A DNA stretch of 64,000 nt, taken from NCBI RefSeq assembly GCF_024223415.1, contig NZ_CP100500.1; one strand, given 5' to 3'. Positions within the stretch are counted from its first letter, which is position 1; every line of letters starts with the position of its first letter. This document shows, piece after piece, positions 11,430 through 15,363 of the stretch. The translations under genes and the position numbers were made by a program. The stretch is from Escherichia coli (GTDB taxonomy: Bacteria > Pseudomonadota > Gammaproteobacteria > Enterobacterales > Enterobacteriaceae). Under the pieces are notes generated by a model. That model made no database searches. It was not told the origin of the DNA and saw only the letters and a list, made by a program, of their open reading frames with translations.

Positions 11430-12422
11430 ATGAGTCAGAATACGCTGAAAGTTCATGATTTAAATGAAGATGCGGAATTTGATGAGAACGGAGTTGAGGT
11501 TTTTGACGAAAAGGCCTTAGTAGAAGAGGAACCCAGTGATAACGATTTGGCCGAAGAGGAACTGTTATCGCAGGGAGCCACACAGCGTGTGTTGGACGCG
11601 ACTCAGCTTTACCTTGGTGAGATTGGTTATTCACCACTGTTAACGGCCGAAGAAGAAGTTTATTTTGCGCGTCGCGCACTGCGTGGAGATGTCGCCTCTC
11701 GCCGCCGGATGATCGAGAGTAACTTGCGTCTGGTGGTAAAAATTGCCCGCCGTTATGGCAATCGTGGTCTGGCGTTGCTGGACCTTATCGAAGAGGGCAA
11801 CCTGGGGCTGATCCGCGCGGTAGAGAAGTTTGACCCGGAACGTGGTTTCCGCTTCTCAACATACGCAACCTGGTGGATTCGCCAGACGATTGAACGGGCG
11901 ATTATGAACCAAACCCGTACTATTCGTTTGCCGATTCACATCGTAAAGGAGCTGAACGTTTACCTGCGAACCGCACGTGAGTTGTCCCATAAGCTGGACC
12001 ATGAACCAAGTGCGGAAGAGATCGCAGAGCAACTGGATAAGCCAGTTGATGACGTCAGCCGTATGCTTCGTCTTAACGAGCGCATTACCTCGGTAGACAC
12101 CCCGCTGGGTGGTGATTCCGAAAAAGCGTTGCTGGACATCCTGGCCGATGAAAAAGAGAACGGTCCGGAAGATACCACGCAAGATGACGATATGAAGCAG
12201 AGCATCGTCAAATGGCTGTTCGAGCTGAACGCCAAACAGCGTGAAGTACTGGCACGTCGATTCGGTTTGCTGGGGTACGAAGCGGCAACACTGGAAGATG
12301 TAGGTCGTGAAATTGGCCTCACCCGTGAACGTGTTCGCCAGATTCAGGTTGAAGGCCTGCGCCGTTTGCGCGAAATCCTGCAAACGCAGGGGCTGAATAT
12401 CGAAGCGCTGTTCCGCGAATAA
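11430..12422 (+). CDS. rpoS: RNA polymerase sigma factor RpoS (sigma-S/sigma-38)
   Basis: Known N-terminus [14 protein letters not shown] starts at ATG 11430 (330 aa); ORF-track frame extends to an upstream ATG at 11394. Codon 33 is GAG (Glu). Confidence 0.97.
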
Positions 12423-12437
12423 GTAAGCATCTGTCAG

Positions 12438-12470
12438 AAAGGCCAGTCTCAAGCGAGGCTGGCCTTTTTC
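12438..12470 (+). terminator. rpoS intrinsic terminator (GC hairpin + T-run)
   Basis: aaaGGCCAGTCTCaagcGAGGCTGGCCttttt directly after the rpoS stop. Confidence 0.75.
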
Positions 12471-12541
12471 TTTTGTTTGGGAAGCTTGTGTTTTTGTCGC
12501 CTGGATAAGACACGTCAGCGTCCTACCCGGCAATTTGCATC

Positions 12542-12949
12542 CTATGTGTTCATCATCTTGCGCACCAGCTGCACAAACAGCTCCTGCTCTTCTGCACTCA
12601 AACGCCCCAAAAATTCCTCATCCACGCTGTCACCAATCGGTATCGCCGCAGCAAGTATCTTTTCTCCTTCGGCAGTCAGCCAGACAAAGCGACGCCGCTT
12701 GTCAGCGGCATCATGTTCACGTCTGACTAAGCCACGATTCTCCATTCTTGCCAACATTTCTGCCAACGTTGCTTTGGTGCTGACTGCTGCTTCTATCAGT
12801 GCCACCTGTTCGATACCAGGCTTATCAGCAATGGCGCGCATCACCGCATACTGTGGTTTGGTCAGGTCAGGTAACTCGTGCTGCCAGCGAGCCGTGTGCT
12901 GCTGAAAAAGCTGTCGTAACTGATGGAACGCTTTATTTCGTAACGCCAT
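12542..12949 (-). CDS. MarR/SlyA-family transcriptional regulator
   Basis: ORF-track frame 12542-12982; Met at 12949 has a GGAG Shine-Dalgarno 7 nt upstream, giving about 135 aa. Winged-helix MarR-like sequence. Divergent from the decarboxylase operon. Confidence 0.8.
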   Translation of the reverse strand: MALRNKAFHQLRQLFQQHTARWQHELPDLTKPQYAVMRAIADKPGIEQVALIEAAVSTKATLAEMLARMENRGLVRREHDAADKRRRFVWLTAEGEKILAAAIPIGDSVDEEFLGRLSAEEQELFVQLVRKMMNT

Positions 12950-13064
12950 GTAAACTCCGGGCAAACTATCTGCCGCTATCATAGCGGTTTTTCAGTGACG
13001 AAGGGGATGTTGTTACTTTTCAGTGCTTGCCGCAATGAGAACAGAGGCGTATTTTAATAATAAT

Positions 13065-13078
13065 GTTCGTATACGAAC
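13065..13078. promoter_or_regulatory. Perfect 14-bp palindrome GTTCGTATACGAAC, candidate MarR-family operator
   Basis: Exact inverted repeat in the 113-bp divergent intergenic region, 18 bp upstream of the ecdB ATG. Confidence 0.5.
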
Positions 13079-13095
13079 AATTAAGAGAGTAAGCA

Positions 13096-13689
13096 ATGAA
13101 ACTGATCGTCGGGATGACAGGGGCTACCGGTGCGCCTCTTGGTGTGGCATTACTGCAAGCGCTGCGGGAGATGCCGAATGTCGAGACTCATCTGGTGATG
13201 TCGAAGTGGGCGAAAACCACCATTGAACTGGAAACGCCTTACAGCGCCCGCGATGTTGCTGCCCTCGCTGACTTCAGCCATAACCCGGCGGATCAGGCGG
13301 CGACCATCTCCTCAGGTTCCTTTCGTACCGACGGCATGATCGTTATTCCGTGCAGTATGAAAACGCTCGCCGGTATCCGCGCTGGTTACGCTGATGGCCT
13401 GGTAGGGCGCGCGGCGGACGTCGTGCTCAAAGAAGGCCGCAAACTGGTGCTGGTGCCGCGTGAAATGCCGCTTAGCACCATCCATCTCGAAAATATGCTC
13501 GCACTTTCACGCATGGGCGTGGCGATGGTGCCGCCGATGCCTGCCTTTTATAACCATCCCGAAACGGTAGATGACATTGTCCACCACGTGGTAGCCCGCG
13601 TGCTGGATCAATTTGGCCTTGAACATCCCTACGCCAGGCGCTGGCAAGGATTGCCGCAGGCCCGGAATTTTTCTCAGGAGAATGAATAA
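13096..13689 (+). CDS. ecdB: UbiX-like flavin prenyltransferase (Pad1 family), decarboxylase subunit B
   Basis: 197 aa; MKLIVGMTGATGA flavoprotein signature; TAATG overlap with the next gene. Confidence 0.85.
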   Translation: MKLIVGMTGATGAPLGVALLQALREMPNVETHLVMSKWAKTTIELETPYSARDVAALADFSHNPADQAATISSGSFRTDGMIVIPCSMKTLAGIRAGYADGLVGRAADVVLKEGRKLVLVPREMPLSTIHLENMLALSRMGVAMVPPMPAFYNHPETVDDIVHHVVARVLDQFGLEHPYARRWQGLPQARNFSQENE

Positions 13690-15116
13690 TGGCATTTGAT
13701 GATTTACGCAGCTTTTTACAGGCGCTTGATGACCACGGCCAGTTACTGAAAATCAGCGAAGAGGTGAACGCGGAACCGGATCTGGCTGCCGCTGCCAACG
13801 CCACCGGGCGTATCGGCGATGGTGCACCGGCGCTGTGGTTTGATAATATTCGCGGTTTTACCGATGCCCGCGTGGCGATGAATACCATCGGTTCCTGGCA
13901 GAACCACGCGATTTCCTTGGGCCTGCCGCCAAACACCCCGGTTAAAAAACAGATTGATGAGTTTATCCGCCGCTGGGATAACTTCCCGATCGCCCCGGAG
14001 CGCCGCGCCAATCCAGCCTGGGCGCAGAACACCGTCGATGGTGACGAGATTAATCTGTTCGATATCCTGCCGCTGTTTCGTTTAAACGACGGTGATGGCG
14101 GTTTCTATCTCGACAAAGCGTGCGTGGTTTCCCGCGATCCGCTCGACCCGGATAACTTCGGCAAGCAGAACGTCGGCATCTACCGCATGGAAGTGAAGGG
14201 CAAGCGTAAGCTCGGCCTGCAACCGGTGCCGATGCACGATATCGCCCTGCATCTGCATAAAGCAGAAGAGCGCGGTGAAGATCTACCGATTGCGATCACG
14301 CTCGGTAACGATCCGATCATCACGCTGATGGGCGCAACGCCACTGAAATACGATCAATCTGAGTACGAAATGGCAGGCGCGCTGCGTGAAAGCTCGTACC
14401 CGATCGCCACCGCCCCGCTGACCGGTTTTGATGTGCCGTGGGGTTCAGAAGTGATCCTCGAAGGGGTCATCGAAAGCCGTAAACGCGAAATCGAAGGGCC
14501 GTTCGGTGAGTTTACCGGACACTACTCCGGCGGGCGTAACATGACCGTGGTGCGCATCGATAAAGTCTCTTACCGCACCAGGCCGATTTTCGAATCGCTG
14601 TACCTCGGCATGCCGTGGACCGAAATCGACTACCTGATGGGGCCAGCCACCTGTGTGCCGCTGTATCAGCAACTGAAAGCCGAGTTCCCGGAAGTGCAGG
14701 CGGTAAACGCCATGTACACCCACGGCCTGCTGGCGATTATCTCCACCAAAAAACGCTACGGCGGCTTTGCCCGCGCGGTGGGCCTGCGTGCGATGACCAC
14801 GCCGCACGGTCTGGGCTACGTAAAGATGGTGATTATGGTCGATGAAGACGTTGACCCGTTCAACCTGCCGCAGGTGATGTGGGCGCTCTCCTCGAAAGTA
14901 AATCCGGCAGGGGATTTGGTGCAGTTGCCGAATATGTCCGTGCTGGAACTCGACCCTGGCTCAAGCCCGGCGGGGATCACCGACAAGCTGATTATCGACG
15001 CCACCACGCCTGTCGCCCCGGACAACTGTGGTCACTACAGCCAGCCGGTGGTGGATTTGCCGGAAACCAAAGCCTGGGCTGAAAAACTGACCGCTATGCT
15101 GGCTGCACGTAAATAA
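13689..15116 (+). CDS. ecdC: UbiD-family (prFMN-dependent) aromatic acid decarboxylase, subunit C
   Basis: 475 aa; UbiD-like; operonic with the UbiX-like gene. Confidence 0.85.
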   Translation: MAFDDLRSFLQALDDHGQLLKISEEVNAEPDLAAAANATGRIGDGAPALWFDNIRGFTDARVAMNTIGSWQNHAISLGLPPNTPVKKQIDEFIRRWDNFPIAPERRANPAWAQNTVDGDEINLFDILPLFRLNDGDGGFYLDKACVVSRDPLDPDNFGKQNVGIYRMEVKGKRKLGLQPVPMHDIALHLHKAEERGEDLPIAITLGNDPIITLMGATPLKYDQSEYEMAGALRESSYPIATAPLTGFDVPWGSEVILEGVIESRKREIEGPFGEFTGHYSGGRNMTVVRIDKVSYRTRPIFESLYLGMPWTEIDYLMGPATCVPLYQQLKAEFPEVQAVNAMYTHGLLAIISTKKRYGGFARAVGLRAMTTPHGLGYVKMVIMVDEDVDPFNLPQVMWALSSKVNPAGDLVQLPNMSVLELDPGSSPAGITDKLIIDATTPVAPDNCGHYSQPVVDLPETKAWAEKLTAMLAARK

Positions 15117-15126
15117 GGAGAACAAG

Positions 15127-15363
15127 ATGATTTGTCCACGTTGTGCCGATGAACAGATTGAAGTGATGGCGAAATCGCCGGTGAAAGATGTCTGGACGGT
15201 ATATCAGTGCCAGCATTGCCTTTATACCTGGCGCGATACCGAACCGCTGCGCCGTACCAGCCGCGAACATTACCCTGAAGCGTTCCGCATGACGCAGAAA
15301 GATATTGATGACGCGCCAATGGTGCCGAGCATCCCGCCGCTGCTGGCGGCAGATAAGCGCTAA
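15127..15363 (+). CDS. ecdD: Small decarboxylase subunit D (Cys-rich, zinc-ribbon-like)
   Basis: 78 aa with CPRC...CQHC motifs; 10 bp after ecdC stop. Confidence 0.75.
   Translation: MICPRCADEQIEVMAKSPVKDVWTVYQCQHCLYTWRDTEPLRRTSREHYPEAFRMTQKDIDDAPMVPSIPPLLAADKR

Follow-up and report, generated by a model that had tools for sequence, protein, structure and literature searches.

The perfect palindrome GTTCGTATACGAAC, at positions 13065-13078 of the 64,000-nucleotide stretch of Escherichia coli DNA analysed here (the window), is very probably the operator of the divergently encoded repressor HosA. Bound HosA would keep the decarboxylase operon ecdBCD off, and 4-hydroxybenzoate would derepress it. 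The site, the regulator, the ligand and the mode of action are already known and were published in 2016. Binding, release by 4-HBA, repression and derepression are the work of others, performed with an identical site and the HosA of E. coli UMN026. The identity of the site, the orthology of the regulator, and the cross-genus conservation and position of the site come from the present analysis.

Sequence and setting of the palindrome

A sequence search of the window returned the exact 14-mer at 13065-13078. It is a perfect inverted repeat without a spacer and has no strand; the arms GTTCG and CGAAC enclose a TATA centre. A preliminary description had reported an exact 14-bp inverted repeat here, together with its distances to the ecdB start and (about 115 bp) to the start of a MarR-like gene, and these statements hold. 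The ATG of ecdB (13096) lies 17 nt beyond the palindrome, and the start codon of the MarR-type gene (12949) is 115 nt away on the other side. The divergent intergenic region between the two genes is 146 bp long. The arrangement is that of a MarR-type operator, with a perfect inverted repeat of 5-bp arms, their centres 9 bp apart, in the intergenic region between regulator and target.

One further outer pair (T...A) extends the palindrome to 16 bp, TGTTCGTATACGAACA, at 13064-13079. The T at 13064 needed for this extension occurs only in the window and in an O157:H7 strain; five of the seven E. coli sequences compared carry a C. The core is taken as 14 bp because the extra pair depends on this mostly absent T, and comparison of the strains suggests that the extension is probably a strain-specific coincidence without function.

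A perfect 14-bp palindrome alone is not beyond chance in 64 kb. The window contains four perfect palindromes of at least 14 bp where 200 first-order Markov simulations gave 5.5±2.4, and one of at least 16 bp where they gave 1.4±1.2. It is therefore the context, the conservation and the published experiments that make the functional case. What does exceed chance is the placement within the 146-bp divergent intergenic region and the conservation across all 80 related loci described below. The palindrome counts are the argument for a chance feature without function, a reading so improbable as to be negligible. Against it, the palindrome keeps the same position in all the related loci while the flanks have diverged, and it is identical to a binding site used in experiments; because of this conservation and the published binding data, the chance reading is already refuted.

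Further HosA boxes were sought in the window. The pattern GTTCGN4CGAAC with at most one mismatch gave three matches where 2.65 are expected, and the two others (30321 and 34915) are at chance level. With up to two mismatches allowed to the full 14-mer, no copy besides the site itself was found in the whole window.

Correspondence with the published HosA site

The original identification, made in E. coli UMN026 (Roy & Ranjan 2016, Biochemistry 55:1120), is represented here by the papers that cite it. As these later papers summarise it, HosA represses the HAD operon and itself, the palindromic site is downstream of the transcription start, and 4-HBA relieves the repression. Cao et al. 2018 (PMC6261655) worked with synthesised DNA "containing 14-bp TFBS of HosA", taken from UMN026. 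In their EMSA and biolayer interferometry purified HosA binds the 14-bp site, and 4-hydroxybenzoate dissociates the HosA-DNA complex (ligand KD 4.74 uM). The oligo table of this paper gives the site with its native flanks, CAGAGGCGTATTTTAATAATAAC before it and AATTAAGAGAATAAACAATGAG after it.

In the machine-read supplement of PMC6261655 some oligos print the site as 'GTTTCGTATACGAAC'. This was treated as a reading error because the form is identical on both complementary strands, the paper gives the length as 14 bp, and a 100% match to genomes is obtained with the corrected 59-mer. Elsewhere in the table an oligo has GTTCGTATACGAAC. When rebuilt with the 14-bp site, the 59-mer is found in 490 complete E. 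coli genomes at no less than 99% identity. All 15 of the matches listed are 100% identical and are located at the 5' end of ecdB, and the published site and the window site are therefore the same locus. The window 14-mer and the HosA site used experimentally agree at 14 of 14 positions.

The UMN026 hosA/HAD locus shares with the window the 14-bp core, the gene arrangement, the place before ecdB and the regulator (HosA approximately 97-99% identical). The sites differ in flanking polymorphisms only. The window has AAT where UMN026 has AAC before the box, which creates the 16-bp palindrome, and three further positions are substituted on the way from the box to the ATG. The pair of HosA and its site has been reused as a biosensor part in two further studies. 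The papers that reuse the UMN026 site include PMC6694116 besides PMC6261655. A literature search for expression or transcription start data on ecdB and ecdC gave nothing relevant.

The regulator and the decarboxylase operon

The gene hosA occupies 12542-12949 on the minus strand, stop codon included, and encodes a MarR-family repressor of 135 aa. The assignment draws on identity to HosA in the PDB, the 408-nt CDS of RefSeq and NCBIfam MarR-family matches. The window protein shares 133 of 135 residues with 'Transcriptional regulator HosA' as crystallised (PDB 8AGA, 8PQ4 and others); the two differences are I98V and V126M. The start at 12949 is that of the RefSeq annotation in a strain identical over this stretch, and most homologues are 134-135 aa long. 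A longer hosA ORF beginning at 12982 was rejected, as RefSeq and most homologues use the start that gives 134-135 aa.

On the plus strand, ecdB (vdcB; 13096-13689), the first gene of the operon, encodes the UbiX-type flavin prenyltransferase subunit (NF041206 VdcB, 311 bits against a cut-off of 290; also RefSeq). It is followed by ecdC (vdcC; 13689-15116), encoding subunit C, a UbiD-family hydroxyarylic acid decarboxylase (NF041204 VdcC, 785.6 bits against 650), and by ecdD (vdcD; 15127-15363), encoding the small subunit D (NF041205 VdcD, 121 bits against 30). All three genes, divergent from hosA, score above the curated NCBIfam thresholds for the B, C and D subunits of non-oxidative hydroxyarylic acid decarboxylase. 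The cognate regulator of the box is encoded beside it, divergent from the HAD operon. With a neighbour that matches HosA at 133 of 135 residues and a 14-mer equal to the published HosA site, the earlier suggestion that the palindrome is the likely operator of the adjacent MarR-like regulator gains support. The accompanying suggestion, that phenolic acids induce the operon through this site, is likewise supported by the published dissociation of HosA from the same 14-mer by 4-hydroxybenzoate.

Near its C-terminus the window EcdC reads APDNCGHYSQ, whereas the two orthologues from other genera that were read (L052 and L061) have APDNRGHYSQ. Judged from these sequences, the Arg-to-Cys difference looks like a lineage-specific one.

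The RefSeq context runs from pcm-nlpD-rpoS through hosA and the divergent ecdBCD to pphB-mutS. Of 5426 complete E. coli genomes, 2404 carry the hosA-ecdBCD module, which is always on the chromosome and lies between rpoS and pphB-mutS. This locus is the polymorphic rpoS-mutS region of E. coli. Just after rpoS there is a terminator-like hairpin of 15 pairs (12436-12476), which matches Rfam ctRNA_p42d below threshold (28.7 bits against a gathering score of 50). This hairpin is most likely just the rpoS terminator.

Conservation of the operator across genera

An alignment of HosA homologues was searched against one genome per species, and 80 loci from 18 named genera were recovered, from Escherichia to Rahnella. 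Nearly all of them have the divergent hosA/decarboxylase arrangement. The box was found in 81 of 81 sequences (the 80 loci and the window), and its conservation therefore includes orthologous loci in other Enterobacteriaceae. All 81 have CGAAC as the right arm; on the left, 76 have GTTCG and five have ATTCG. In the cross-genus alignment the intergenic DNA around the box is otherwise poorly conserved. In most loci the box stands 15-21 nt ahead of the first decarboxylase start codon; a few outliers have 24 nt (L073) and approximately 36 nt (Rahnella).

The centre of the operator (13070-13073 and the orthologous positions) is more variable. Among the 81 sequences it reads TATA in 31, TACA in 23, TATG in 11, TGTA in 10, CATA in five and TGTG in one. 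These are transitions only, with zero transversions, and the pyrimidine-purine alternation (YRYR) is always kept. Such a pattern suggests that the centre may be read by DNA shape or flexibility rather than by base identity. The seven E. coli sequences differ by up to 4%, and among them the arms are invariant and the centre is TATG in one strain.

The four hosA loci without an ecdB homologue (L052, L061, L067 and L071, from Pluralibacter, Superficieibacter twice and Cedecea) still have the box upstream of hosA. Two of these, L052 and L061, were read in detail, and there the divergent gene is ecdC. On the protein side, the genera surveyed show no variation in the predicted recognition helix of HosA (STKATLAEML) or in its wing (DKRRRF). 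An invariant helix and wing would fit the near-invariant arms of the operator.

The predicted ecdBCD promoter and the leader

The predicted promoter of ecdBCD lies directly before the operator on the plus strand. It consists of a -35 hexamer TTGCCG (13027-13032), whose TTG (13027-13029) is invariant in the cross-genus alignment, and a -10 hexamer TATTTT (13050-13055) within a conserved GTA..TT block (13049-13055). The pattern TTGnnn-17-TAnnnT was found in 79 of the 81 sequences, always with a spacer of 17 nt. In the same proportion of sequences 7-11 nt separate the end of the second hexamer from the box; the distance in the window is 9 nt. A simple promoter scan preferred ATGAGA-18-AATAAT, with a start inside the palindrome. 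This candidate was rejected as the main promoter, as it has no conservation in other genera.

From the position of the conserved hexamers, transcription of ecdBCD is predicted to start near 13062 (13061-13063), which would place the operator at approximately +3 to +17. This prediction agrees with the secondary literature, as far as that literature reports the primary work, in which the site is placed downstream of the transcription start. The likely ribosome binding site of ecdB, AAGAGAG (13083-13089, plus strand), was read from the sequence between the operator and the ATG, 6 nt from the latter; a purine-rich GAG/GAGG block is found at the equivalent place in the alignment of other genera. 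The preliminary description had counted a position inside the transcribed leader, with no effect on expression, against an operator. The site probably does lie in the leader, or at its 5' edge. The interpretation is not overturned by this, because the published mechanism is repression from just such a position.

With a start near 13062 the palindrome would be transcribed, and its main role might then be that of a hairpin in the first part of the ecdB transcript, with an effect on mRNA stability or on translation, and not that of a DNA operator. Folding of the leader gives a stem of 6 bp with a 4-nt loop (-5.8 kcal/mol, z = -2.2 against shuffles), and variation limited to the four central bases would suit a loop. 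However, across the 81 sequences and 18 genera the arms are almost unchanged and zero compensatory changes occur, while the rest of the leader diverges freely. The unchanged arms without compensatory change therefore point to selection on the sequence itself and not on pairing. A loop, moreover, has no reason to keep a YRYR centre, and the published binding of HosA is to a double-stranded site. No Rfam family matches the region: the scan of 12400-13400 gave nothing at the operator and one spurious lncRNA match elsewhere. With no Rfam match, no covariation in the arms and a weak fold, the signs of a structured RNA are not present at the site. We consider it very unlikely that the palindrome is mainly an RNA element; a hairpin in the ecdB leader is possible in principle, in a secondary role at most.

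The hosA side of the intergenic region

A candidate -10 hexamer of hosA, TATGAT (12978-12983, minus strand), is located inside a CTAT(C/G)ATAG block (12976-12984) that is conserved in nearly all genera. From its conservation this block is probably the hosA -10. The upstream ATG at 12982, from which the rejected longer hosA ORF would begin, falls within the block.

Several other features were observed on this side. In Escherichia the CTAT(C/G)ATAG block is inside the inverted repeat GCCGCTATCATAGCGGT (12972-12988), which was flagged as terminator-like by a scan. The Escherichia intergenic region is approximately 25 bp shorter than that of other genera (146 against approximately 170 bp), and at 12985-13026 it is without their T-rich TTTTTTAA block. 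Around this junction TTTTCAGTG is directly repeated, as a 9-bp unit at 12989-12997 and again at 13017-13025. This repeat may be the scar of a rearrangement.

A second candidate for a divergent hosA promoter, TTGTTC-18-TAAAAT on the minus strand, has its -35 within the operator. Both hexamer anchors are present in just 45 of the 81 sequences, and this overlapping promoter was kept at low probability only. It bears on the proposal that the site is bound chiefly by another regulator (for example SlyA or another MarR paralogue), or serves mainly the autoregulation of hosA. Autorepression by HosA is reported in the literature, as summarised by papers that cite the original work, and the overlapping -35 would provide a means. 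However, only those 45 sequences keep the two anchors. The box always adjoins the decarboxylase genes, 7-11 nt after the conserved ecdB -10, and each of the genomes examined has it together with hosA. The same secondary sources report that 4-HBA derepresses the HAD operon. Taken with these observations, another chief regulator or a mainly autoregulatory site is extremely unlikely, and HosA acting on ecdBCD is the reading retained.

A second box in other genera

A second, weaker box, GATCG-YRYR-CGAAC with CGAAC invariant, is present in 39 of the 81 sequences, 56-57 bp upstream of the main box (examples are L006, L010, L020, L026 and L041-L043). About half of the genera have it, among them Klebsiella, Enterobacter, Kluyvera, Leclercia, Lelliottia, Pseudocitrobacter and Pluralibacter. 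In the 81-sequence survey it is absent from Escherichia, Salmonella, most Citrobacter, Kosakonia, Atlantibacter and Rahnella, and the equivalent place in the window (approximately 13008-13022) has no such site. The second box ends 4 nt before the TTG of the -35, and the two boxes therefore bracket the core promoter.

One tentative and rather doubtful proposal is that the operator architecture varies by lineage and that the single box of Escherichia does double duty, repressing ecdBCD and covering an overlapping hosA -35. If true, a single box that covers the -35 of TTGTTC-18-TAAAAT would explain the reported autorepression by HosA. No mention of the second box was found in the papers that cite or reuse the original HosA work. 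The second box may be the one lead here that is new, and it lies outside the window.

Proposed mechanism and uses

In the mechanism that we favour, a HosA dimer would set one winged-helix recognition helix on each arm, GTTCG and CGAAC, at the 9-bp distance between the arm centres. The operator would be directly downstream of the ecdBCD promoter, within the region that RNA polymerase occupies or traverses at initiation. Bound HosA would block polymerase binding, opening or promoter escape, and the decarboxylase operon would be off. 4-Hydroxybenzoate, which is the HosA ligand as well as a substrate of the decarboxylase, would bind the repressor and lower its affinity for DNA. HosA would then be released and ecdBCD transcribed. 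The mode of repression, occlusion as against roadblock, and the exact start in this strain are what we infer.

For annotation, 13065-13078 can be labelled as the HosA operator and the hosA start fixed at 12949, and a promoter model is provided for ecdBCD in the rpoS-mutS polymorphic region. The HosA site is already a part in biosensors for 4-hydroxybenzoate, a paraben metabolite. The YRYR-constrained centre and the second box of some genera could help engineers of HosA-based sensors.

Comparison with known systems

Homologous decarboxylase operons are not always controlled in this way. In Bacillus subtilis the B-C-D operon bsdBCD (yclBCD) is induced by phenolic acids via a divergently encoded regulator, BsdA. 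BsdA is a LysR-type activator, unlike the MarR repressor HosA, and its DNA site is different. In the position of the site the closer parallel is lac O1, which gives steric repression from just downstream of the start site. Relative to the predicted start, the HosA operator would likewise have its centre approximately 10 bp downstream, where it falls within the footprint of RNA polymerase. The lac repressor belongs to an unrelated protein family, and no auxiliary operators are evident in the Escherichia HosA locus.

Other MarR-family operator systems include MarR/marO, SlyA (TTAGCAAGCTAA), HucR/hucO and PcaV/pcaI. HosA shares with them a homodimeric winged-helix repressor encoded divergently from its target operon, a short palindrome over the promoter or start site, and release by a phenolic or aromatic acid ligand. 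The recognition sequence is different, and the HosA site is short, with 5-bp arms and a 4-bp YRYR centre. marO has two sites, whereas the Escherichia HosA locus has a single copy. The similarity of HosA to these proteins is distant only (E 1e-16 or weaker), with the PcaV structures 4FHT and 4G9Y among the matches. The site is a HosA operator, and it belongs to the ordinary class of MarR-family operators.
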